In this document: positions 4,257 through 23,720 of the stretch, in pieces | Position numbering within the stretch: position 1 is the first letter of the stretch | Layout: each line of letters starts with the position of its first letter | Assembly: GCA_964549935.1 (NCBI GenBank) | Contig: CAZJVT010000002.1 | Span: 191,066 to 255,065, forward strand | Origin: an uncultured Candidatus Saccharibacteria bacterium | GTDB lineage: Bacteria; Patescibacteriota; Minisyncoccia; UBA6257; 1-14-0-10-44-23 | DNA: 64,000 nucleotides | Reading direction: 5' to 3' | Position numbers and translations under genes: made by a program | Notes under the pieces: model-generated | What the model was told of the DNA's origin: nothing | The model's input: the letters and a program-made list of their open reading frames with translations, nothing else | The model's database searches: none

Positions 4257-4679
4257 ATGAAGAAATTATTGACAGCTCTCGCGCTCGCTGGAATTACGCT
4301 AAGTTTCGCCGCACCTCTCGTCCTTGCTCAACCGGCGGGATCAATTACCTGCCCTACGGGCATCTCTGTTTCGGCTGGCACGCCCTGCCCATTACCAGAC
4401 AAAATCCTTGGCGGCGACGTAACAAATCTTGGCGGTGGCAGCTTTGTTGCTTTACTTCAGACGATTACTAACTGGATGTTTACTTTCCTGCTAGTGTTCG
4501 CTGTAATCATCTTCATCTACGCAGCTTATAAGTATCTTTTCTCTGGAGGCAACGAAGAAGGCACAACTGCCGCAAAGAACTACCTCATTTATGGCGTTAT
4601 CGCTATCGCAGTTGCGATGATGGCAAAAGGTATAACCTTTATCGTCGCCGAACTCTTAGGAGCAACGACTACGAAATAG
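4257..4679 (+). CDS. TrbC/VirB2-like T4SS-type pilin, paralog 4
   Basis: signal peptide; CPTGISVSAGTPCP Cys pair; motif AYKYLFSGGNEEGTTAAKNYLIYGVIAIAVAMM. Confidence 0.6.
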   Translation: MKKLLTALALAGITLSFAAPLVLAQPAGSITCPTGISVSAGTPCPLPDKILGGDVTNLGGGSFVALLQTITNWMFTFLLVFAVIIFIYAAYKYLFSGGNEEGTTAAKNYLIYGVIAIAVAMMAKGITFIVAELLGATTTK

Positions 4680-4704
4680 TTTTTTTTCTGTAACTGTATC
4701 CACT

Positions 4705-4728
4705 AAAAACCGCCTTCGGGCGGTTTTT
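4705..4728 (+). terminator. Rho-independent terminator after pilin paralog 4
   Basis: aaaaaccgcc-ttcg-ggcggttttt perfect hairpin followed by a T-run; the high-GC block starts immediately downstream. Confidence 0.7.
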
Positions 4729-4838
4729 AGCTTGATATAAAAACGACAGAAGCCCGGCCGGTGACATCCTCCCTTTTGGGGAGGAGCACCGAACCGGGCT
4801 TCAACTGCGCGTCGCCTTACGTCGACGCGCGAACGACT

Positions 4839-5387
4839 CTACCAGGCTTCTACGCTGAAGCGCTGGTTCACGGCCCTGACCTGAACGTAGAACGTCCCGG
4901 TCGAAGTCGTATCCCAAGCTATCCCGGCCCGAGCTTCGAATGGGTTGCCGTCCCCATTCTCAAGCAGGACCTGATAGCCCAGGTTGTCCGGCGCTCGAAT
5001 CTTGAAGCGCATGCCGCCGGAGACATGCACTCTGACCCACTGCCCGGGAAGCAGTGCGTCGGGAAACGACTTTTCTCCCGGAGAGTCCAGCGTCACGCTC
5101 GCGACCGGAACTTCCGGCGGAGTGTGCGCTTTCGGTGTGTGACTCGCCGCCACACCGACTGCGGCTTCCTTCTTGACTGCCTGCTCGACCGTGAAGTCGT
5201 GCGGCAGTTCAGGTGCAGTGGGTTTCCGGCTCTGGTAGAGCAGGTAGACCGCCGCGCCAATCAGCGCCCCCCAGAGGAGAAAGTACCTCAAGAGAACGAC
5301 CGCCCCCGGAAACGGGGGTTCCATCCCCTTCGGCAGCCGCCCTGCGGACTCCGCCTCGGGCGTAGCAGCATGTGCGTCGCCGCTCAT
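4839..5387 (-). CDS. Hypothetical membrane-anchored protein (high-GC cassette A, gene 2)
   Basis: 182 aa with one transmembrane helix (VVLLRYFLLWGALIGAAVYLLY); about 65% GC; its start overlaps the stop of the upstream gene by 4 bp, suggesting translational coupling. Confidence 0.55.
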   Translation of the reverse strand: MSGDAHAATPEAESAGRLPKGMEPPFPGAVVLLRYFLLWGALIGAAVYLLYQSRKPTAPELPHDFTVEQAVKKEAAVGVAASHTPKAHTPPEVPVASVTLDSPGEKSFPDALLPGQWVRVHVSGGMRFKIRAPDNLGYQVLLENGDGNPFEARAGIAWDTTSTGTFYVQVRAVNQRFSVEAW

Positions 5388-7216
5388 CGCGTACCTCCTC
5401 TTCTGCCAGCGAGTTCGCGCAGCGTCACGATGACGTCAGCGCCGATGCCGTTCGCGGTCACGATCTCCTCGTGAACATCCCGCTTCACGACACCGTCTTC
5501 GGCCAGGACAGCCTCTCTCGCCTTCTGCTTGATCTCGTCGCTCACTCCTGCGAAGGCAGTGAGCGCCTCCAGGTCCGTCACCTTGTCCGGTGACGCCCAG
5601 CGAGCCATGCGCAGCACCCGATTATTGGTCGTAACCAGGTCGGCGCCGGCCTTGTTCTCGGCTTCCAGTCGCTTGAGATCTTTCTGGATGAGAGCGACCG
5701 AACGAGCAACAAGAATCTCAAGCCACTTCCCGGTGGGCATGAGCTTGGTCAGGTTCAACCGCGTGATGATCACGCCGAAGACCTTGACCTTGATGTGCGC
5801 CCGCCCCTGCTCGAGGGCGTCCGCCATCTGATCCCGCGCCCAGAGGTAAGCCTCGAGGCGCTGGCCAACAAACTGCTTGGCCGCGGCCAGGTCACGGTAT
5901 CCCATCCCGGCCACGACCGCGAGGATCTTGGCCTTGACGGCGTCGATCGTCTTGAAGTCGGATCCCTTGAGATCCTCCTCCTTGACGTCTTCGCGGTGCC
6001 AGAGGCGCACCAGGAACGTCGGTACGCCCGGGACGACCTCCTTGGGCTTCGCCAGGAACTTGCGCTTCGCCTTCGCGACGCGCTTCTCCTCGGCGCGAAC
6101 CTCCACGGGAGTCGTGGGTGCGACAGGCGGGACAGGCGAGACGAACACGAGGTCCGCGCCCAACTCATTCGCACCGAGATGGTGCTCGTGAGCCCAGTGC
6201 GCGATGTGCCCCGTGATGACCGGCCAGAATTGATCCGGATACAGCTCCTTGACGATCGCCAAGGCGCCGCGACGGATTGCTCCGGGGACCTCCTCGCCGT
6301 ACTGCGGCCCGCTTGTGGGCGAGCGCAGCCACCGACGATACGACTCATTGAGCTGGTCGATCAGCTTCGGCAAAACGCCGGCAATGAACCCCTCATGCTT
6401 GAACGGCAAGAGACGGTTCGAGTCAGCCATGATGCCGATGCCCAAGTTGCCCGTGAAGGTGCTGTCCTCCGGGCCGAGAATCGGTTCCTCCTTGGAACCG
6501 ATGCAGGGATTGAAGTCCCCACCACTTACGTCCACCGGCTCCGGCTTGAACAGCCACCAGAGCAGCGGAATGCGAGCGCGACCTTCGAGAGGCTTGATCG
6601 CCGAAAGCATGATCCCGTTGAAGTCCAGGAATGCCTTCGTTTCCGGGTGTGATACCGAAAACCGCGCATACCCCTCGAACTTGTACGCGTCGTACAAGAC
6701 CCAGGAGATGATCGGAGCCGCGACGAGCGCCAGAGGCAACCAAGCCCCCATCGCCAGACACAGCACGATCGCGATTACAGTCCCCACCACGAAGCAAACA
6801 GTCCGAGCCCGCGCGTCGAACTCGGCGAGAATCGGGCCGAACTCCAGATGCGGGATCACGTCGTGGTGACCTCCCCCGCCAGGATGTTCGTCGTCATCGC
6901 CGAGTTCGGCGTGAGCACAGTGCCCCCGCGAACAGTTGATCGCCTCCTGCAGATGCGTGAGTGGTGGCCAGAGCCACCCCATCGCGCGCCCGACGTTGAA
7001 GGACAGCGGTGCGCCGGGCGGCGCAGCCGTACCGCGCATCTGCCACCAGCGAACCAGAGTATAGACGTTCAGCCCGATCGCCACGAAGGCGCCGAGCAGG
7101 CACGCCAGCTTCACCCAGGGATTCATCGTTCCGCGATCGGAGATCGCAGCGTACAACGAGTACGCAGCGCCGACGAACGCAGCGACGAGACCAACGAGCT
7201 TCAGGATTCTACGCAT
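5384..7216 (-). CDS. Hypothetical multi-pass membrane protein with His/Asp-rich loop and C-terminal coiled/SPFH-like region (high-GC cassette A, gene 1)
   Basis: 610 aa; N-terminal transmembrane helices; HAELGDDDEHPGGGGHHD loop; C-terminal region with IKVKVFGVIITRLNLTKL and KDLKRLEAENKAGADL, reminiscent of band-7/SPFH; about 65% GC; spurious antisense ORFs appear across it. Confidence 0.55.
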   Translation of the reverse strand: MRRILKLVGLVAAFVGAAYSLYAAISDRGTMNPWVKLACLLGAFVAIGLNVYTLVRWWQMRGTAAPPGAPLSFNVGRAMGWLWPPLTHLQEAINCSRGHCAHAELGDDDEHPGGGGHHDVIPHLEFGPILAEFDARARTVCFVVGTVIAIVLCLAMGAWLPLALVAAPIISWVLYDAYKFEGYARFSVSHPETKAFLDFNGIMLSAIKPLEGRARIPLLWWLFKPEPVDVSGGDFNPCIGSKEEPILGPEDSTFTGNLGIGIMADSNRLLPFKHEGFIAGVLPKLIDQLNESYRRWLRSPTSGPQYGEEVPGAIRRGALAIVKELYPDQFWPVITGHIAHWAHEHHLGANELGADLVFVSPVPPVAPTTPVEVRAEEKRVAKAKRKFLAKPKEVVPGVPTFLVRLWHREDVKEEDLKGSDFKTIDAVKAKILAVVAGMGYRDLAAAKQFVGQRLEAYLWARDQMADALEQGRAHIKVKVFGVIITRLNLTKLMPTGKWLEILVARSVALIQKDLKRLEAENKAGADLVTTNNRVLRMARWASPDKVTDLEALTAFAGVSDEIKQKAREAVLAEDGVVKRDVHEEIVTANGIGADVIVTLRELAGRRGGTR

Positions 7217-7698
7217 CTCTGTCTCCTCGACCCGCCTATGGCGGGTCAGAATATCTGACCCGCACCGCGGGCCTCGGTTTGGGTCCCGAGACCCTTTACC
7301 CGCGTCACAACAAGTGACGTTAGGGTCCCTCGTCTCCTGCTACCCCGCAATGGGGCAGGCCACGAAACAGGGATTTTGGGATCGATCATCGATTTTCGAC
7401 CCCAAAACTCCTGCTTCGTGCTTCAGAACACGAGAGATCCCTCAAAACCTAAGTTTTAAGGGCTTTTTAGCCCTCCTCCAATGAGGTTAAGGCGCTGTCA
7501 AAGAGCGGTCTTTACTGAACATATAGTATAGCATACTAATACTAATTTGTCAAGTATTAGGCGCTTTTTGCACTTTTTGGTCAATCAGTAAAAATCACGA
7601 ACAAATAAGCTCAAGTTTATCCACTGCCCTGCTCAAAAATAACTTCACGTATGTTATACTGAATGTAACGAATTAATTTTTACTATTAAAAACATCGT

Positions 7699-8046
7699 AT
7701 GAAGAAAACGTTACTCGCTCTTAGCACTATCGCAATGGTCGGACTGACTCCGCTCGCCGCTTTTGCAGTTGATATTCCGGCTACCACACCTGGCCCGGGC
7801 ATCCGCAGCTTCGAAGGCATTCTTAATGTGCTCGACACCGTCATCAACTGGATGTTCACGCTCCTGCTCGTTATGGCAGTAGTTATGATCATTTACGCCG
7901 CGTTTAGCTACTTGACCGCCGGCGGTGACGAGGAGAAGGTTGGCAAGGCGCACAAGGCTATCATCTACGCCGTCGTCGCTATCGCCGTCGCCTTCCTCTC
8001 AAAGGGCATCTCGTTCGTCGTCGCACAGCTTTTGGGGCAAGGATAG
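7699..8046 (+). CDS. TrbC/VirB2-like T4SS-type pilin, paralog 5
   Basis: signal peptide; motif AFSYLTAGGDEEKVGKAHKAIIYAVVAIAVAFL; separated from paralogs 1-4 by the high-GC insert. Confidence 0.6.
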   Translation: MKKTLLALSTIAMVGLTPLAAFAVDIPATTPGPGIRSFEGILNVLDTVINWMFTLLLVMAVVMIIYAAFSYLTAGGDEEKVGKAHKAIIYAVVAIAVAFLSKGISFVVAQLLGQG

Positions 8047-8142
8047 TACGTGTAACGTTAGACGTGAAACTTGCAACTTTCAAAACCGCGACGCCAGTCG
8101 CGGTTTTGATTTTGGGGCGAAAATAAGCGATACTACAACAAT

Positions 8143-8223
8143 GCTGGGGTGGCGAAATGGCAGACGCATCAGCCTTAGGAGCTGAAGCCGCGAGGCATGT
8201 GGGTTCAAGTCCCACCCCCAGCA
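8143..8223 (+). tRNA. tRNA-Leu (anticodon TAG)
   Basis: manual fold: acceptor GCTGGGG/CCCCAGC; anticodon stem TCAGC/GCTGA with loop CTTAGGA; 13-nt variable arm; T-arm GTGGG-TTCAAGT-CCCAC; discriminator A; CCA not encoded. Confidence 0.8.
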
Positions 8224-8371
8224 CAAAAACCAAAACACGGCCTTTAGGTCGTTCTTTGGTTTTTGTGCTTAGATGGACTTGAATCGTCGGACCGGAAATT
8301 TTCAGTATAAAATTTCGGGGAGAGGGTGCCCAGACCAACTGGGCGCGACGGCGCACAGTTGAGTCGAGGGC

Positions 8372-8390
8372 AAGTCCCACCCCCAGCACC
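8372..8390 (+). repeat. 19-bp direct repeat of the tRNA-Leu 3' end (att-like)
   Basis: caagtcccacccccagcac at 8372..8390 matches tRNA positions 8205..8223 exactly; the copy is followed by cca. Confidence 0.6.
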
Positions 8391-8464
8391 AACGAAAAAG
8401 TCCGGTCTTTGCTGGTTCTTTTTTGTCTTTGAGCTGACTAACTGTCGACTGACTAACCGACAAC

Positions 8465-9385
8465 TCATCTCCTCTGCCCGTGAAATTTCTTATGCACATC
8501 TCCTAATTGTTTGTTGGTCAGGTGCGTGTAAATTTGCGTCGTCGAGATATTGCTGTGGCCCAGCAGCTCCTGCACACTGCGCAGGTCGGCGCCATTTACG
8601 AGTAGGTCGGTGGCAAACAAGTGGCGCAGCTTGTGTGGCGTAACGTGCTCCGCGATGCCGGCCTTACGAGTGTAGTAATTAACCAGACGCTGCACAGCGC
8701 GCGGCGTGATCTTACCGATAACTTTTGGCGGTTTTTGCGACTTCTTGGGAACCTTACTTAAACTCACAAACATCCACTCGAGCGCGTCCCCGCGCTTATC
8801 CAAATACTTTTTAATCGTGGCCTTGCAGCTATCTGAAAAAAACACGACGCGCAGCTTCTCTCCCTTGCCGCGCACAGTAATCTCGCCGCGACTTAAGTCG
8901 AGATAACGGCTAAGCCCGCAGAGCTCAGAGACACGCAGCCCGGTTGAAAAAAGCGTCTCTAATACCGCTCGGTCGCGCAGCGCACGCAATCCCTCCCCTT
9001 CGGGTGCGCTCATCAGGCGCTCAAAGTCGCGATACTCCGGGATAGCAATCTGCCTTTGGGCAATCTTTGGTAACTCGATCTTATCGGCAGCTAAGACTTT
9101 ATAATCATGCTTGGCCAGATACTTTAAAAAGCTACGCAGCGCAATGACGTAGTAATTTTGAGTCACCTTTTTCATCGTTCCACCCCGGCCACTATCCATT
9201 GTCGACATTTTTACACGAAATGATTTCACGGCACGCTCGGTAATGTCCGACTCTGACTTAATCCCTGCGTCCTTTAAAAACACCTTGAGATAGTGCTCGT
9301 AGTTGCGCCGTGTTTTAGGCGACCGGCCCTTTTCGACGGTCAGATAGTCTAAGTAGTCTTGCAGGAGCTCCTCAATTTTCGCCAT
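8465..9385 (-). CDS. Tyrosine recombinase, XerC/XerD-family integrase
   Basis: 306 aa; C-terminal catalytic motifs LRHLFATDLLVNGADLRSVQELLGHSNISTTQIYTHL; N-terminal SAM-like domain; lies next to the tRNA-Leu direct repeat. Confidence 0.8.
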   Translation of the reverse strand: MAKIEELLQDYLDYLTVEKGRSPKTRRNYEHYLKVFLKDAGIKSESDITERAVKSFRVKMSTMDSGRGGTMKKVTQNYYVIALRSFLKYLAKHDYKVLAADKIELPKIAQRQIAIPEYRDFERLMSAPEGEGLRALRDRAVLETLFSTGLRVSELCGLSRYLDLSRGEITVRGKGEKLRVVFFSDSCKATIKKYLDKRGDALEWMFVSLSKVPKKSQKPPKVIGKITPRAVQRLVNYYTRKAGIAEHVTPHKLRHLFATDLLVNGADLRSVQELLGHSNISTTQIYTHLTNKQLGDVHKKFHGQRR

Positions 9386-9504
9386 ACACTAAGTATACCG
9401 CAGATGTGTCGTAAAATATTCCCGGGCTTCGTGAGCGGCAAAAGACTATGTTACAGCGTACTAGTACACGGTAACATAGCAGAAAAATATTTCCGTCGCT
9501 TTAA

Positions 9505-10248
9505 TTAGTGAGTTATCTCTATCCGGACCGGATCAGGATGGAACTCCAGTTCGGTATCGGTATACACAATGAGTGGTGGCAGCACGAACTGCGCAGGCTG
9601 CTCGCCGGCGATTCGGATAACCCGCTCGGGATGCGCATGTCCACCTGTGGCGGGTAGCCCAGCCTGGATACGCTTAACCTGGTAGGCCTTAAGCTTTCGC
9701 TCGAGCGCCTCCCCTAGCCCGCCGGAAAGTAATGACTCCAAAAACTTTTTAAATGCCGAAGCGGTTTTGTGTCTGTGGCGCAGGTCGCCTTCGTAGAGAG
9801 GCTTACCGGCGAGCCAGCTTTTATTCGCCGCAAAGAACTCGGCCAGCTTAGCATCGCTGCCATACACGGGCGCAAGCCCGGCGTACATCCGCTGCCAGTA
9901 TTCATTCTTCTGCAAAGACAGCTTATACGTCGCAGGAGTGACAAAGTGGTTTAAACAAATCTTATCACTGGCCGCGACGGAGTGGTCGAGCTTGCTGCGC
10001 CGCCAGCCGAAGAGACCAAAAAGAATCGCGGCAAAGAACCTGGCTGTAAAAATCCGCCCGGCGCGCGCACCGATTAAAACGTCGAAGTCACTCTCCTCGT
10101 CCACGTTGCCTATTGCCATTGAACCGCTACCAAAAGCAAACTCAACAAACGGAATGTGTCGAAACAGCCCGGTCTTTTTTAAAAACCGCGCCCACTTTTT
10201 GTCGTACAGCAGCTGCTGGTCAACTTCATTCTTACTTTCTGCCTCCAT
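9505..10248 (-). CDS. Nucleotidyltransferase-fold (Pol-beta superfamily) protein
   Basis: GSGSMAIGNVDEESDFDVLIG matches the GS-x(9-13)-DxD nucleotidyltransferase signature; 247 aa. Confidence 0.55.
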   Translation of the reverse strand: MEAESKNEVDQQLLYDKKWARFLKKTGLFRHIPFVEFAFGSGSMAIGNVDEESDFDVLIGARAGRIFTARFFAAILFGLFGWRRSKLDHSVAASDKICLNHFVTPATYKLSLQKNEYWQRMYAGLAPVYGSDAKLAEFFAANKSWLAGKPLYEGDLRHRHKTASAFKKFLESLLSGGLGEALERKLKAYQVKRIQAGLPATGGHAHPERVIRIAGEQPAQFVLPPLIVYTDTELEFHPDPVRIEITH

Positions 10249-10660
10249 ACAAATTCAAAAATTCGTCCCTGAACATAATTGCCCAATGCACCTCACGAGC
10301 TTCATTGGGAAAAACGCGCGCCTTATCTTCTGGCGAAATTGGTCCTCGAATATGGAAACCAAACCGCTCAATCAGCTCTGGATGCTCGGCAACTATCCAT
10401 GACGTTGTTGTGACTGCTTTCGCCTCGGCGAAGGCCGGATCGTCTCTCATTTGCCCAGCTAAAATTCGCATTCCGTCGAGAACGTTAGCGATTTTTTCCT
10501 TGGTTGAGAAATCGAACATGGGAGCAAGATGGAGCGCGATACCTTTTCCTCCGTCTTTAAACTCCCGAATATGATAACCGAGCACCTCATTTAGCCGCAC
10601 AAAAGTCGGGTGTCTTTCAAAAAAGGCGTCTCTAGTTGATCCCGGCCGTGGCTCTGCCAT
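10232..10660 (-). CDS. Hypothetical protein, partner of the nucleotidyltransferase
   Basis: 142 aa; 17-bp overlap with the downstream nucleotidyltransferase gene; no recognisable motif. Confidence 0.45.
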   Translation of the reverse strand: MAEPRPGSTRDAFFERHPTFVRLNEVLGYHIREFKDGGKGIALHLAPMFDFSTKEKIANVLDGMRILAGQMRDDPAFAEAKAVTTTSWIVAEHPELIERFGFHIRGPISPEDKARVFPNEAREVHWAIMFRDEFLNLYGGRK

Positions 10661-10664
10661 ATTT

Positions 10665-11750
10665 TTATTCCTCTACTGCTGGCTTTTCTAATGCTTTAAC
10701 TTCAAAGCCGACGCCCTCGCCGGTAATGCGCATCACGTCCTTGTCTACCTTGCCGAGCTCTTTGTACGCCGCGTTGTAGTGATTGACCGTCGTACTCATC
10801 GCGTTGCCGAGCTTGAGCATATAGTCTTCGTGGGCCTTCCAGTGCTTCTGGAGCTCGCCGATACGCTTAACAATGTCCTGGGTCGCCTGTTCGATCTTAA
10901 AGGCTTTAAGGCCATACAAGACCGATTGCAGATAGGCAGCGAAGGTCGTCGGCGAGACGATAATCACCTTCTTTTCGTTATAGGCGTAATCGATAAGGTT
11001 GCGGGTGTTGACCTTAACGGCGCCAACCTCATTAACGAGCAGGTCGTAGTAAATCCCTTCGGCCGGGATAAACATAAAGGCAAACGGCAATGTCCCCTCC
11101 TCGGAGCGGATGTACTTTGCGGTCTCGTCGATGCGCTTTTTTAAATCATTTTTAAAATCTTTTTCGAGCTCCTCGCGCTGCTTGTCGTCAATTGCCTGCG
11201 TCACGCGGTTGTAGTTGTCGAGACTGAACTTTGCGTCGACAGGAATGATGCCGTCTTTCGTAATTATCGCGGCGTCGACAACCTCTCCGTTTTTAAACGG
11301 ATACTGCATTTTATACGAACCCGGCGGCAGAATGTTGCTCAAGATGAGTTCTAGAGAGGCCTCACCGAGGTTGCCGCGCTGCTTTTGGTGCTTCAAAACT
11401 TTTTCGAGGTTCGCGAGCTGCTCGGCAATCGTCATAAACTGCTTCGTCTGCTCGTTGGTCTTCGTCTGCTCACGAGTAACGTCTACCAGCGACTTGTTCA
11501 TCTGCTCGCTGATTTCACGCAGGAGTTGCTGACTCTGACTAAACTGGTGCCGCACGCTCTCGGTCATTTCTTTACGGCTCTCCCCGAGCTTGCTATCAAC
11601 CGCCTGGGTAAGTTGCATCAGCTGCTGCTGAAGCAGCAGCATGCCCTCACCCTCTTCTTTGGGCGCGGCAGAACGACGCATATATATAAGAAGGATAGCA
11701 AAGCCACCGATAAGAACGAGCAATAAAATGCCGAAATAAACAGGGGTCAT
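10665..11750 (-). CDS. rmuC: DNA recombination protein RmuC
   Basis: N-terminal transmembrane helix, long coiled coil, C-terminal RmuC nuclease-like region (VDAAIITKDGIIPVDAKF..FAFMFIPAEGIYYDLL); 361 aa. Confidence 0.7.
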   Translation of the reverse strand: MTPVYFGILLLVLIGGFAILLIYMRRSAAPKEEGEGMLLLQQQLMQLTQAVDSKLGESRKEMTESVRHQFSQSQQLLREISEQMNKSLVDVTREQTKTNEQTKQFMTIAEQLANLEKVLKHQKQRGNLGEASLELILSNILPPGSYKMQYPFKNGEVVDAAIITKDGIIPVDAKFSLDNYNRVTQAIDDKQREELEKDFKNDLKKRIDETAKYIRSEEGTLPFAFMFIPAEGIYYDLLVNEVGAVKVNTRNLIDYAYNEKKVIIVSPTTFAAYLQSVLYGLKAFKIEQATQDIVKRIGELQKHWKAHEDYMLKLGNAMSTTVNHYNAAYKELGKVDKDVMRITGEGVGFEVKALEKPAVEE

Positions 11751-12106
11751 ACTTTTAGTATAGCTCCATTTGAATAAATAAACGAAAACCCGCCTGAGCC
11801 ATGCATATCTTGACGACCTTTTTCCTTAACGACCCTGGCCGAAGTGATTTCCCCCACTTTGATATGCCTTGCCACTATTGCAGGAAATAGTGCCTGCGCA
11901 AAACATATCGCTGCGAGATGATCGAAACGGCTATTCCGAGTCGCCGGTCATGCTGATCTCCCCACCTCCTGACTACCCATAGGTCACTCGTCAAGCTTAG
12001 GAAAGGTGCGATGGCCCAAACGGGCTATCCCTATTATAAAGCTCACCGCGGAAAAGGCAAATGGCTTAAAATCGCAAACTGTTATTTAAGAGTGAATAAG
12101 TACCTC

Positions 12107-12679
12107 TTACCTTGCGAGGTAGATAATAAAGCCAACGGCGATCGTGTTGATAACGAAGGAAACGAGCATAATGTAGCGCATTCGCAGGTGCGTAAGTCCC
12201 ATCATGCTAAGGCCAAGTTCATCCGGCAGTGGTGAGGCTATAACAAGGGCGCCGAAAAAGATTGCGGCAACTCGGATGAGCCACGAGGAGGCAAATTTTT
12301 CGAATGTCCCATGTGTCCTTTTGACGAGATACTCGAAAAGCTCATCGAGCATGCTGACTTTAACGGCGGCGATTAATCCGGCGTCGCCCAGCATCGCTCC
12401 CACTCCCCCCAGGAGCGCGATACTGTAGAGTGGCAGCGCGCCATCACGGGCAAGAACGATAAAAATTGCCAACGAGAGTGGCGTCGTTGAAAACGAAGTG
12501 AAGCAAAGCCCCCCGATAAAGGCCATCAGCAGCAGCCACCCGCCGCCAAGAGCCGCCCACTTATCGAGTAATCCGGAAACGACAAGCAGGTATGATGCCG
12601 TAATTATAAACGCAACGAGCACAAAGTAGGTCATGTGCCGCAGCGTGAAAATCTTTTTAAAAATTTGCCCTGTTGTCAT
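12107..12679 (-). CDS. DedA/VTT-family-like integral membrane protein
   Basis: 190 aa with 4-5 transmembrane helices and Gly-rich membrane segments; family assignment is tentative. Confidence 0.4.
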   Translation of the reverse strand: MTTGQIFKKIFTLRHMTYFVLVAFIITASYLLVVSGLLDKWAALGGGWLLLMAFIGGLCFTSFSTTPLSLAIFIVLARDGALPLYSIALLGGVGAMLGDAGLIAAVKVSMLDELFEYLVKRTHGTFEKFASSWLIRVAAIFFGALVIASPLPDELGLSMMGLTHLRMRYIMLVSFVINTIAVGFIIYLAR

Positions 12680-12720
12680 ATCTGTTTCCTGTTAGTACAG
12701 CCGTTTGAATACCCGGTCGC

Positions 12721-14271
12721 TTACGCTTCAAGCAACGGCAACAGGCTCGTTCCGGTCATTTCGGCGGGCTTTGGGATTTTGAGCAAATCTAAAATCGTCG
12801 GCGCAACGTCAGAAAGAATACCAATGGCACCTTCGGCGGAGACCTGCGCCATCCGTGCCTCATGCTTAAACTCCGGACCGACAACGTAGATAGGCACCGG
12901 GCTCGGATCGTGGGTCGTCTCCGGGCTGCCCGTCATTGCGTCTAGCATCACCTCAACATTGCCGTGATCTGCAGTCACGACTAAGTAGCTCCCCGTCTCC
13001 TCGCAGGCTTTGACGATGCGCCCGAGCTGCTCGTCGACGGTCTGGGCGGCAATAATGGCGGCGTTAAAGTTTCCGGTATGTGCAACCATGTCGGCGTTGG
13101 CAAAGTTTAAAACGACAACGTCATACGTGTGATTAGCAATCGCATCGACAACCTGGTCGGCAATCGCCGCAGCCATCATCTGGGGTTCTAAGTCGTGCCG
13201 CTCGACGTTACGCGAAGGAATCAAAACTTTATTCTGCCCCGGGAACTGCTCGTCGCGATATCCGTTAAAAAAATACGTCACGTGGGCATACTTTTCCGTC
13301 TCGGCAATTGAAAGTTGCTTAAGTCCGGCGTCTGAAAGAACTTTGCCAAGCGGCTGACTGACGTCCTCCGGCGGAAAAGCGACCGGCACCTTAAACGTCT
13401 TTGTATATTCGGTCATCGTCGCGACAAACAGATTCTCAAACTTCTTAACTGGGAACTTGTCGAAATCCTTTTCTATAAAGGAAGCGGCGATTTGGCGGAT
13501 GCTGTCTTCACGAAAATCACAAAAAACTAACGCATCGCCGTCGACAATTGGATGCCCTATGGCAATCGGCAAAAAGTACTCATCACTTTGGTCTATCTCG
13601 TAAAACTTCCCAACCGCCTTATCAACGGGCACATCTGTCGGCGCGAGATTTCCGACCATTGCATCGTAGGCTTTCTGCGTACGATCCCAGTGACTATCGC
13701 GATCAAGCGCAAAGTGACGCCCGGTGAGACTCGCCAAGGTGCCAACGCCGGCATTAGCCGTCACCTCGCTCAACTTCGTCAAAAGCTGCAATACAGAATG
13801 CGGCCTACTGTCCTTGCCGTCAGCGAACAAATGCAAATTAACTTGTTTCACACCGTTTGCCGCCGCGACTTCAATCAGGGTCTGCAAATGCTCAAAAGCT
13901 GCATGAATAGTCCCCTCGGTCAAAAGGCTGGCGATATTTAAAGCCGAATTATTTTTCTTAACATGCTCGAAGGCCTGCAAAAAAACAGGATTCTTCTGAA
14001 ACTCCCCGCGCTGTATAGCCAGTGTGATACGCGGATAGTGTTGATACAAAACCTTCCCGGCGCCAATTGTCAGGTGGCCGACTTCAGAGTTGCCGACATC
14101 GGTCCATGGCAGCCCCACAGAGATACCGGAAGCCTGGAGTGATCCAGCTAAGTAGTGCTGGCTAAGATATGGGATAGTCGAAAGGCTCGCCTTGGCAAGC
14201 GGATTCGTAAAATCCTGTTTCCCTACTCCCCAGCCGTCTAAAATTGCTAAAACCAACATCGGTCGCTCCAT
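12721..14271 (-). CDS. gpmI: 2,3-bisphosphoglycerate-independent phosphoglycerate mutase
   Basis: 516 aa; LAILDGWGVG N-terminus and VTADHGNVEVMLD metal-binding motif. Confidence 0.85.
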   Translation of the reverse strand: MERPMLVLAILDGWGVGKQDFTNPLAKASLSTIPYLSQHYLAGSLQASGISVGLPWTDVGNSEVGHLTIGAGKVLYQHYPRITLAIQRGEFQKNPVFLQAFEHVKKNNSALNIASLLTEGTIHAAFEHLQTLIEVAAANGVKQVNLHLFADGKDSRPHSVLQLLTKLSEVTANAGVGTLASLTGRHFALDRDSHWDRTQKAYDAMVGNLAPTDVPVDKAVGKFYEIDQSDEYFLPIAIGHPIVDGDALVFCDFREDSIRQIAASFIEKDFDKFPVKKFENLFVATMTEYTKTFKVPVAFPPEDVSQPLGKVLSDAGLKQLSIAETEKYAHVTYFFNGYRDEQFPGQNKVLIPSRNVERHDLEPQMMAAAIADQVVDAIANHTYDVVVLNFANADMVAHTGNFNAAIIAAQTVDEQLGRIVKACEETGSYLVVTADHGNVEVMLDAMTGSPETTHDPSPVPIYVVGPEFKHEARMAQVSAEGAIGILSDVAPTILDLLKIPKPAEMTGTSLLPLLEA

Positions 14272-19186: not shown

Positions 19187-20914
19187 ATGCAGAAACTCTC
19201 TAGCCGGCGGGGCTTTACCCTGCTCGAGCTTCTTATAACCATCGGGATTATCGCCGGACTCGCAACTGTGACTATCGTGGCCATTAATCCGAAGCGCAAC
19301 TTCAGCCAAGCTCAAAATACCGCTCGCCAAGGAGATTTACAAAAGATTCTGGGCGCCTTAAATCAATATGCGATAGAAAAAAACGGCTCCTTCCCTGCAG
19401 GGGTTACAACTACACTGCAAATGTTGGGCACGGCGACCTCGAGCTGCAATGTTGTTTGCGGACCGGATGCGCTGGTTACAATTGTAAGTAACTTTATCGA
19501 CAATAGCCTGCAAACCTTTGCCTCCGGAACACTTGCTAACACGCAGTGGAATCCCGCAACGAATGCCCTCGAACTTACGAATGCCGGGCTAACCGCCAAA
19601 ACCGGAACTTATACCAGCTCAATAAAAGATGCGAACGCTAGCCAAAACTGGACTACCCTTACCTGGACGCCGTATGCGCCATATAACAAAGAGTTACCGA
19701 ATGCCGCCGCGACAGAGACCGGCTACGTCACCGGTAATGCGGCAATGCCCGGCAATAAATTGCTGATGCATATGAACGAATCAAGCGGTGCCATCGTAGA
19801 CTCGTCCGGAAACAATCTTAACGGAACCGTAAACGGGGGCATCACCTACAACGTGACGGGGAAATTAAAAACTGCTCTCTCCTGGTCAGGCAGCAACAAC
19901 AACTATGTCTCCATAGCCAATAACGCCAATCTCAACCTGCCAAACACCGGCGGCAGCGTTGTCTTGTGGATGCAGCCAACTATCAACCTGGCTGCCAACA
20001 CCGGTATGGGCGTCATCCGCAAGCCTGACTATGGCGGCAACCTCAATACTCCCGGCGGCTACGGCATCGAAATCTTCCGCGCAGTCAGCAACGGGCCCCA
20101 AAACATAAAAGCACACCTCGGCTGGAACAACGGAGGGGCGAACTCGCAGCAAACGCTGGTTGGTGCGACGAATCTTGTAAGCGGTAGCTGGTATCACGTT
20201 GCGCTCACCTGGAATGCAACTACTATGACAATCTACGTCAACGGTGCGCAAGACACTTCGGCAGCTAGGGTTAACGGCCAACTCAACTGGGCCAGCAACA
20301 CCGCCAACCTGGACATAGCCCGCAACTCCAACTCCATCAGCAGTAACCGCGCCTGGTACGCCGGTGCGCTCGACGAAATAGCGCTCTTTAACCGCATGCT
20401 TACGGCGACGGAGGTGAACGATTTCTATAAACGTGGCTCGCTAAAGCTTCGGCAGCAGGTGCGCTCTTGCGACGACGCGCTCTGCGCCGGTGAGATTTTC
20501 ATCGGTCCCGGCGGAACCGGCGCCACATATTATGATGACCTGAACAACACGACAAATGCCCCGCCGAGCATGACGCTTTCTAATCTTGCCACCAACCGCT
20601 ATTTCCAATACAAAACTTACTTTGACACAGACACCGCCTCCTACGGCCCCGGGCTTTCAAGCATCAGCGGGGCTAATAATGGCAGCGGCACTATGAATAC
20701 AACCTCGACAGCGACGACCGCCAACAGCTGCCTCAACCTCGCACCAACCTTTGTGCCGAGCTACCTCCCCTCAATGCCGTTTGACCCGCTCGTCGGCTCG
20801 CTAGCAAAAACATATTACGCTGTTCAGAGCATCGATAACGGAGCAAATGGCATAGGCCTGATCATTCGCGCCTGTTATCCTGAACTCGGTCAACCGATAG
20901 AGACTAGACAATAA
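19187..20914 (+). CDS. Type IV pilin-like protein with prepilin N-methylation motif and LamG/ConA-like domain
   Basis: N-terminus RRGFTLLELLITIGIIAGLA (class III signal peptide); central region ..SGSWYHVALTWNATTMTIYVNGAQ.. lectin/LamG-like; 575 aa. Confidence 0.7.
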   Translation: MQKLSSRRGFTLLELLITIGIIAGLATVTIVAINPKRNFSQAQNTARQGDLQKILGALNQYAIEKNGSFPAGVTTTLQMLGTATSSCNVVCGPDALVTIVSNFIDNSLQTFASGTLANTQWNPATNALELTNAGLTAKTGTYTSSIKDANASQNWTTLTWTPYAPYNKELPNAAATETGYVTGNAAMPGNKLLMHMNESSGAIVDSSGNNLNGTVNGGITYNVTGKLKTALSWSGSNNNYVSIANNANLNLPNTGGSVVLWMQPTINLAANTGMGVIRKPDYGGNLNTPGGYGIEIFRAVSNGPQNIKAHLGWNNGGANSQQTLVGATNLVSGSWYHVALTWNATTMTIYVNGAQDTSAARVNGQLNWASNTANLDIARNSNSISSNRAWYAGALDEIALFNRMLTATEVNDFYKRGSLKLRQQVRSCDDALCAGEIFIGPGGTGATYYDDLNNTTNAPPSMTLSNLATNRYFQYKTYFDTDTASYGPGLSSISGANNGSGTMNTTSTATTANSCLNLAPTFVPSYLPSMPFDPLVGSLAKTYYAVQSIDNGANGIGLIIRACYPELGQPIETRQ

Positions 20915-23388: not shown

Positions 23389-23648
23389 ACGGAATCAGTA
23401 AAAGCCTGGGGAGGCAAACACCAAAAACTACCGATTAAATCGGTAGTTTTTGTTTGATAAAATCTGGGGAGGAACCCTTCGACGGACTCAGGGCAAGTCG
23501 CCCTCGACTCTTGGCCGCGTCGTCACGCGGCCAAGGTCTGGGCACCGTCTCCCTCTTTTTTCTTACTAGAAAAACGAGGTCCGACGATTCGATTCCTTCC
23601 GCGAAAATTACAAAACAAAAACACGGCTAAAGCCGGTTTTTTGTTTTG

Positions 23649-23720
23649 TGCTCTCGGAAGGAATCGAACCTTCATTTGCCACTTCGCAGGCGGCTGTCCT
23701 ATCCATTGAACGACAAGAGC
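23649..23720 (-). tRNA. tRNA-Arg (anticodon GCG)
   Basis: reverse complement GCTCTTGTCGTTCAATGGATAGGACAGCCGCCTGCGAAGTGGCAAATGAAGGTTCGATTCCTTCCGAGAGC(A); anticodon loop CTGCGAA. Confidence 0.75.

Follow-up and report, generated by a model that had tools for sequence, protein, structure and literature searches.

A 64,000-nt stretch from an uncultured Candidatus Saccharibacteria bacterium (contig CAZJVT010000002.1, positions 191,066 to 255,065; hereafter the window) contains a tRNA-Leu(TAG) gene whose 3' end is repeated a short distance downstream, ahead of a gene for an Xer-type tyrosine recombinase. The tRNA gene occupies 8143..8224 on the plus strand (ARAGORN; Rfam RF00005, 61.4 bits; its end is called at 8223/4) and does not encode its CCA, which is unencoded in 6/6 tRNA genes of the window. 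The 19-mer CAAGTCCCACCCCCAGCAC occurs in exactly two copies, one at 8206-8224 (R1, plus strand, running from T-loop position C56 to the discriminator plus 1 nt) and one at 8371-8389. A CA directly after the second copy (R2, 8371..8391 with the CA, plus strand) makes it read ...AGCACCA, that is, a tRNA 3' end with CCA. An earlier note on this DNA had seen both the exact recurrence and the reading into CCA, and both are borne out once its positions (8205..8223 and 8372..8390) are corrected to those given here.

The repeat of the tRNA 3' end is exact and non-random. At up to 3 mismatches, chance matches to the 19-mer are expected at 0.01 per window, and two matches appeared in 0/100 shuffles. Beyond the 19 exact positions, R1 and R2 stay alike, though more weakly, in the flank and terminator (78% over 40 nt with the exact positions counted in), and none of the other 11-mers of the tRNA recurs except a D-arm word in common with tRNA-Leu(TAA). 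The third repeat that the earlier note had envisaged before rmuC is missing: neither an exact-match search nor one allowing up to 3 mismatches found another copy in the window. We also considered R2 as a transfer-messenger RNA (tmRNA), a tRNA pseudogene or another known RNA; ARAGORN reported nothing at normal thresholds and poor pseudo-tRNAs only at ps70, and Rfam likewise returned no match.

The two copies are separated by a spacer of 146 bp, which the earlier note had put at 148 bp and judged too short for an element. It is this segment itself that forms the candidate element, a member of a family with conserved structure: what the repeats enclose is, with high confidence, a gene-free, hairpin-rich module of ~165 bp (8206-8370). 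Directly after the tRNA stands a bidirectional terminator-like hairpin, T1 (8220..8269; arms 8220-8243 and 8246-8269, 88% complementary). It is followed on the plus strand by B (8275..8283), which repeats the T-loop/T-stem of this tRNA in inverted form (GGACTTGAA, reverse complement of TTCAAGTCC at 8204-8212); the tRNA 3' end, T1 and B together form one long imperfect palindrome. The remainder is a core of ~90 nt, K (8284..8371, plus strand), in which the blocks TCGTCGGACC, GGGGAGAGGGTGCCCAGACC and GAGTCGAGGGC separate a hairpin, H1 (8292-8302 / 8309-8319), from a second arm, H2 (8328-8336 + 8336-8346 / 8351-8361 + 8361-8371). Beyond R2 lies a second terminator-like element, T2 (8392..8426), with a hairpin at 8402-8415 and a T run; it is weakly similar to T1 and also occurs in the direct-repeat families D1 and D3. 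Rfam searches recovered only the tRNA from 7000-13000 (E up to 1) and nothing credible from 8215-8470 (E up to 10).

Relatives of the module and of the tRNA-Leu/Xer junction

A sensitive BLAST search with 8225-8464 as query found related sequence in the window and at loci in other genomes and contigs (numbered L001 and so on). It matched 62 nt of L003 at 87%, second copies of tRNA 3' ends in L040 and L051, and three colinear segments near 23535-23627 in the window itself. The latter belong to a second module on the minus strand (23464..23720), which comprises tRNA-Arg(GCG) (23648-23720), a terminator hairpin (23611-23647), an inverted T-loop block (23588-23601), a K core (23500-23598), a degenerate tRNA-3'-like piece (23464-23499) and another terminator hairpin (23423-23451). 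Here B reads CGGAAGGAATCGAA, the reverse complement of the T-loop and T-stem of tRNA-Arg. The Leu and Arg cores have in common the identical blocks TCGTCGGACC, GGGAGA(G/C)GGTGCCCAGACC and GAGTCGAGGGC, and their hairpin stems are entirely different yet complementary. Complete divergence of the stems around unchanged blocks implies long-term selection.

The structure of K is conserved by covariation. A covariance model built from three copies (labelled R1, like the first repeat copy) matched window 8273-8371 behind tRNA-Leu with 114.9 bits, window 23500-23598 behind tRNA-Arg(GCG) with 117.1 bits, L003 behind tRNA-Leu with 62.1 bits and L015, a distant Patescibacterium, with 43.8 bits (E 5e-10), 150 nt 3' of tRNA-Arg(CCG). 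All four matches lie on the strand of the tRNA and on its 3' side. In a three-copy MAFFT alignment, which was not fitted to the model, 94.2% of cells were paired, with double changes at 12 pairs and one-sided changes at 0; 0/500 shuffles did as well, and slid registers gave 36-52%. The four-copy alignment, which was fitted to the model, gave 92.5% paired cells and double changes at 19/29 pairs (0/500 shuffles as good; slid registers 42-51%). The cells that are not Watson-Crick, read on the tRNA-sense strand, comprise 3 G-U, 7 purine-purine, 1 C-C and 0 A-C, a pattern that mildly favours folding of the sense strand.

The loci have a common layout: tRNA, T1, B matching the tRNA's own T-loop/T-stem, K, and R2, which repeats part of the tRNA 3' end in direct orientation. 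A T2 hairpin after R2 is present in both window copies and in L015, and both window copies fold to a closed three-way junction. The same layout recurs behind tRNA-Leu in L040 and L051 (and truncated in L055), with a more divergent core that is beyond the reach of the model; these cores have GGAGAG and CAGACC-hairpin-GTCGAG motifs in common and show compensatory changes of their own. Instead of a simple terminator, a large three-way palindrome also follows tRNA-Leu immediately in L040 (6440-6553, minus strand), L055 (1018-1128) and L003 (~11080-11185, minus strand); each has a 25-28-bp outer stem and two inner hairpins, and the three are alike in architecture and different in sequence. These modules constitute a small, conserved, tRNA-tailored hairpin family in Patescibacteria, of which our literature searches found no earlier description.

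The ends of the modules follow the tRNA beside which they lie. An exact direct copy survives at 4/5 full-layout loci, which represent three tRNA species, and it always starts at T-loop position C56 or A57. It spans 17 nt from A57 to the discriminator in L051 and L040 (both tRNA-Leu(TAG)), 16 nt from A57 in L015 (tRNA-Arg(CCG); start again 17 nt from the discriminator) and 18 nt + 1 from C56 at the tRNA-Leu(TAG) of the window, and the tRNA-Arg(GCG) module of the window has no exact direct copy of 8 nt or more. In L015 the flanks of R1 and R2 additionally match at 11/14 positions. The inverted block B, where exact, matches its own tRNA over 9-14 nt: 9 nt at the window's tRNA-Leu and 14 nt at its tRNA-Arg, 11 nt in L051, 14 nt in L040 and 13 nt in L003, where the direct copy is missing and the core is truncated; in L015, B is degenerate. 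The B of L003 matches a CCCTCC variant of the 3' strand of the T-stem, a variant that leaves a T-T mismatch against the GTGGG strand of that tRNA. Such a mismatch would be expected after an insertion, since the 3' part and B would have arrived together and the 5' half would be resident.

Additional tRNA ends were observed at three loci. In L051, part of a 3' end from the other type of tRNA-Leu (CAAATCCTCTCGGGAGCACCA) lies at 8815-8835, ~45 nt past R2, and a non-cognate tRNA 3' fragment (CGAGAGCAC) directly follows K in L015 (~19304-19312, minus strand). Judged by analogy, these two ends resemble the stacked remnants at tRNA integration hot spots. On an unrelated contig, L038, two near-identical tRNA-/tmRNA-like 3' ends (...GGGTTCAAGTCCCACCC(C/G)CAGCACCA) stand 1.1 kb apart (734-1857) and could mark a small attL/attR-flanked insertion.

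A scan of a genome collection with the Xer protein gave 23 loci, with which the window proteins were compared by tblastn. The 3' end of tRNA-Leu overlaps the Xer stop codon by 1 nt in L058-L062, L064 and L067 (~3918 in L058), and the two genes are separated by 3 nt in L068-L070 and by 44 bp in L045; these abutting junctions are empty sites. In other relatives the spacer measures 0.2-4.2 kb and holds unrelated genes (Exo III-like, CobW, AbiEii toxin, PaaX-like regulator, PMT and unknowns), and in L001 the tRNA-Leu lies in the opposite orientation with respect to the adjacent genes. The junction thus varies among relatives. The earlier note had set conserved Xer synteny together with a repeat in all relatives against its proposal; synteny is indeed conserved (see below), and the repeat is patchy. 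The module is missing from most relatives, close ones included, and no repeat of the own tRNA 3' end was found in L001, L002, L004-L006 and L008, close relatives with the other tRNA-Leu type. At the orthologous tRNA-Arg locus, four loci have the peptidoglycan-binding neighbour gene without an adjacent tRNA or K.

Several further features of this junction deserve mention. The convergent, end-to-end adjacency of tRNA-Leu and Xer is kept down to ~60% Xer identity. Independent assemblies (L024, L063, L065, L066 and L071-L073) end no more than ~50 nt past the Xer stop, which points to heterogeneity within the population or to repeats at this junction. Between T2 and the Xer stop, the window has a tandem direct repeat at 8434-8463 (CTGACTAAC(TGTCGA) + CTGACTAAC(CGACAA)), and a repeat rich in TGTCA stands at the corresponding place in L024.

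The tRNA itself also varies. Two very different types of tRNA-Leu(TAG) exist, with acceptor stems GCTGGGG... and GCTC(T/C)CG... and 63/84 identity, and they do not track Xer relatedness (window versus L001, L002, L004 and L027). The window and L001 differ in type and match at only 63/84 positions of tRNA-Leu(TAG), whereas tRNA-Gly(GCC) is identical at 72/72 positions among the window, L001 and L003. From this contrast in identity, the tRNA-Leu(TAG) of the window may be a foreign replacement; against this idea, its type is also present in the Xer-linked loci L025, L003, L028, L039, L040 and L045.

Weighing insertion, RNA and replication error

On balance, we think it probable that the two repeats are the junctions of a gene-free insertion module of ~165 bp (8206-8370) in the T-loop of tRNA-Leu(TAG). 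Site-specific insertion is supported because the left boundary of the repeat is the same at four loci and because relatives offer empty sites. Of the earlier note's proposal of integration into the tRNA 3' end, the signature of site-specific insertion thus stands and the genomic island falls. Under this reading, the module would enter the T-loop through site-specific recombination and supply its own tRNA 3' portion (R1), which would leave the tRNA intact, along with the terminator T1. The former tRNA 3' end (R2, with its CCA) and the terminator T2 would have been displaced by 165 bp, in the direction of Xer. B may pair with the T-loop copy, so that the site would be offered as a hairpin within one strand, and a recombinase would presumably be supplied in trans, for which the conserved Xer is a candidate by proximity only. 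Our confidence in this mechanism is moderate to low.

Several observations weigh against insertion. Neither a free or circular form nor a parent element nor a dedicated integrase was found. Among IMG/VR viral contigs, the 19-mer and two layout patterns had no match, one scan for the K blocks returned nothing, and the other returned two loci without a tRNA, both rejected by the model. The Arg copy in the window has only a degenerate direct repeat, a recombining unit of 165 bp would be very small, and the T-arm provides arms of only 5 bp, far short of the known binding sites for Xer proteins or integrases. That R2 carries CCA, as 0/6 tRNA genes of the window do, is slightly odd for a native end. 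The family comprises only four model matches and two divergent copies, and one of the two alignments was fitted to the model. The near-absence of G-U pairs in the hairpins suits DNA and RNA equally, and the few strand asymmetries (3 G-U, 7 purine-purine, 0 A-C) would also suit an RNA product. The empty sites come from other relatives, no closer relative being at hand for a strict before/after comparison: exact look-ups of Xer, aimed at an empty site in the same species, had no match, and look-ups of the pilin and of the 142-aa protein p142 (see below) led to short contigs that end before the junction.

A possible, though less probable, explanation is that K is a small structured RNA gene or a tRNA 3'-trailer RNA on the strand of the tRNA, so that the 19-mer would be functional and not a scar of insertion. 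Pairing of B with the repeated T-loop segment would then form a helix that closes K, and the transcript would finish in a tail resembling a tRNA 3' end (in this case with CCA), with T2 as its terminator. Strong covariation, conserved loop and junction sequences and the closed three-way junction of both window copies are what such an RNA would be expected to show, as is a terminator-like hairpin with a T run after R2. All wobble pairs and 7/8 mismatched cells (purine-purine) likewise fit the tRNA-sense strand, and the full divergence of the Leu and Arg stems around identical blocks within one genome accords with an RNA as well. However, the hairpins are almost perfectly Watson-Crick, the gap of only ~10 nt between T1 and B leaves no room for a promoter, and no Rfam family matched even at the most permissive threshold. 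Absence from most relatives, close ones among them, would be unusual for a housekeeping RNA, and the exact mimic of the tRNA 3' end is lost in the Arg copy. The RNA reading and mobility are mutually compatible.

The repeats might also have arisen with no element at all, if replication had gone wrong at a terminator that is palindromic: B would then stem from template switching or fold-back, and R2 from slippage. In the window, as in L040, the tRNA 3' end, T1 and B do form a long imperfect palindrome, and R1/T1 and R2/T2 resemble a partial 165-bp tandem duplication. Such errors do not explain a covarying K with identical blocks behind different tRNAs and in distant genomes, nor the common boundary at C56/A57, and we strongly disfavour this origin as very unlikely.

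A broader version of the insertion reading is doubtful in our view, namely that the modules represent an undescribed class of gene-free miniature mobile elements in Patescibacteria, with the universally conserved T-loop as target, a self-paired hairpin (B with the T-loop copy) as site, K as recognition scaffold and a host housekeeping recombinase (possibly Xer) as mover, and that repeated swapping of 3' halves could lie behind the unusual divergence of tRNA-Leu(TAG) in this clade. If the insertion reading is true, geneless units of ~165 bp would be capable of tRNA-targeted site-specific integration. This would be hitch-hiking reduced to an att site alone, one that imitates a T arm, and it would offer a concrete mechanism for mosaic tRNA genes in the ultra-small genomes of Patescibacteria. 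With one core in Leu and Arg versions, the unit would also provide a scaffold for insertion that can be retargeted naturally. Should K be an RNA, a new family of structured RNAs associated with tRNA genes would be at hand.

The conserved Xer gene and its neighbours

The Xer-type recombinase (306 aa; 8465..9385, minus strand) is a core chromosomal gene with stable synteny and is not part of the element. It lies outside the repeats, 75 bp beyond R2. The earlier note had its family and this distance right and its orientation wrong: the gene does not start there, and it is the minus-strand stop codon that faces the tRNA and repeat. The protein has a two-domain architecture with HxxR...Y motifs (Pfam: Phage_integrase PF00589, 1.3e-40; SAM-like N-terminal domain PF02899, 4.7e-11), and among NCBIfam profiles it scores best against XerC, XerA and XerD models. 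It marginally reaches the XerA_Arch equivalog cutoff (220.6 versus 220) and remains below those of XerC (224.3 versus 335) and XerD (214.2 versus 330), and integron-integrase models are far below cutoff (TIGR02249, 111.8 bits versus 265; NF011946, 78.5 versus 435). The window encodes no Xer paralogue. A role of the Xer/tRNA junction as a dif site or terminus was considered and rejected: GC skew is uniformly negative, with no switch in the window, and no dif site was identified.

Homologues of this Xer at 64% identity or more number in the thousands across Patescibacteria. The gene order RNase Y, iPGM, p190, RmuC, NT247, Xer, tRNA-Leu(TAG), pilin is found in L001-L006 as far as the contigs reach, with Xer identities from 88% to 68%, and it recurs in L024-L027 and in the contigs of L058-L073. 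The Xer/tRNA-Leu adjacency is further present in L028, L039, L040, L045, L047, L049 and L058-L070, amounting to more than 20 loci, and Xer identity over all loci that keep order or adjacency ranges from 92% to ~60%. In the metagenome contigs with the tRNA type of the window (L028, L039, L040, L045, L047 and L049), the Xer orthologue is 60-67% identical and convergent with tRNA-Leu.

Next to Xer, NT247 (247 aa; 9505..10248, minus strand) is a conserved syntenic gene with a weak nucleotidyltransferase (NTase)-like motif and not cargo. It lies between RmuC and Xer in L001-L004 and L024-L027, with 48-70% identity by tblastn. A GS...DxD motif is present, and the Pfam matches (PF01909, E 0.09; PF18765, E 0.11) are sub-threshold and cover only this region; no PDB sequence matched. 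Between RmuC and NT247, p142 (10232..10660, minus strand) is an ORFan, a 142-aa open reading frame without a family match and with a 17-nt overlap with NT247. It occurs in none of the relatives and has no homologue but itself among 5.8 billion proteins. The "NTase pair" of the earlier note is hence not a pair, one member having sub-threshold matches only and the other no family match. The RmuC/NT247 junction is also variable, since L027 has an AAA-kinase-like gene in the slot of p142.

A decayed or tandem genomic island, with Xer as its integrase, the NTase-like genes as cargo and an undetected third repeat before rmuC, would account for a tyrosine recombinase beside a tRNA with a repeated 3' end and for spacer genes that vary among relatives, but we consider it refuted and at most barely conceivable because the synteny of Xer and NT247 is conserved in every relative examined; a third repeat is lacking, Xer is widespread and points its 3' end towards the repeats from outside, and composition is unbroken over 8-12 kb. 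An element running rightward through both genes, which the earlier note had offered as a possibility, is not supported, both being conserved and syntenic. Whether the module is an insertion or an RNA, a tRNA, a repeat of its end and a neighbouring tyrosine recombinase need not mean an island, which calls for caution among annotators.

Apart from these genes, the window shows a compositional island at 4500-7500, where GC content is 0.58-0.64 versus ~0.50 elsewhere. It coincides with a 610-aa minus-strand open reading frame (5384-7216) that has no Pfam or NCBIfam match and lies just upstream of a type IV secretion system (T4SS)-pilin gene.

Comparison with known systems

The neighbouring recombinase resembles chromosomal Xer proteins (XerC/XerD, XerA/XerH/XerS) in its two-domain build, its HxxR...Y motifs and its conserved synteny. 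Against the equivalog cutoffs its scores are mixed, XerA being only just reached and both XerC and XerD not, and no dif partner was identified.

Like miniature inverted-repeat transposable elements (MITEs) and palindromic repeats (Correia, RPE, REP/BIME and the IS200/IS605-derived PATEs), the modules are small, non-coding and hairpin-rich, have terminal inverted complementarity (B versus R2) and occur in more than one copy per genome. MITEs, however, are dispersed in many near-identical copies at unrelated sites with a target duplication of fixed length. Here the two copies in 64 kb lie only 3' of tRNA genes and always point the same way with respect to the tRNA; each has ends that fit the tRNA beside it, the stems are fully different, and no transposase-bearing parent was found.

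Parallels also exist with integrative elements at tRNA sites, which are known to accrete in tandem and to leave degenerate remnants, as in the tycheposon islands of Prochlorococcus (bioRxiv 10.1101/2020.12.28.424599). As in those elements, the tRNA 3' end is directly repeated, the element-borne end (on the insertion reading) keeps the tRNA intact, partial tRNA ends of older or foreign origin are found farther from the tRNA (L051, L015), and relatives have empty sites. In contrast to tRNA islands, the repeats here enclose 146 bp without an integrase or any other gene, the unit being 165 bp and up to ~370 bp in L015. The module also differs from them in carrying the site once more in inverted form, along with a conserved core of two hairpins, and independent deletion remnants would not have a covarying core in common.

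The internal order of the module is reminiscent of systems in which a hairpin-folded single strand takes part in recombination. When a site of this kind (integron attC, CTX phage attP) recombines with a duplex, the resulting order is site, cargo, inverted site, structured spacer and site, and integron cassettes without open reading frames are known. Differences from these systems are apparent at several levels. The adjacent recombinase is not an integron integrase, as its TIGR02249 score indicates, and the CTTGAAC of B and the GTTCAAG of the T-loop each depart at two positions from the RYYYAAC / GTTRRRY consensus. The target is a tRNA T-loop and not attI or dif, the locus is not at a GC-skew switch, and the likeness lies in the integrated order, from which a single-stranded intermediate would have to be deduced. 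The order of the module agrees with that of attC cassettes and of CTX-type integrative mobile elements exploiting Xer (IMEX) throughout: a site, cargo (T1), an inverted site (B), a structured spacer of ~60-140 nt (here K, ~90 nt) and a site. As in attC cassettes, the inverted copy of the module can pair with the site and so rebuild a duplex within a single strand, and B, K and R2 together measure ~120 nt, inside the size range of attC.

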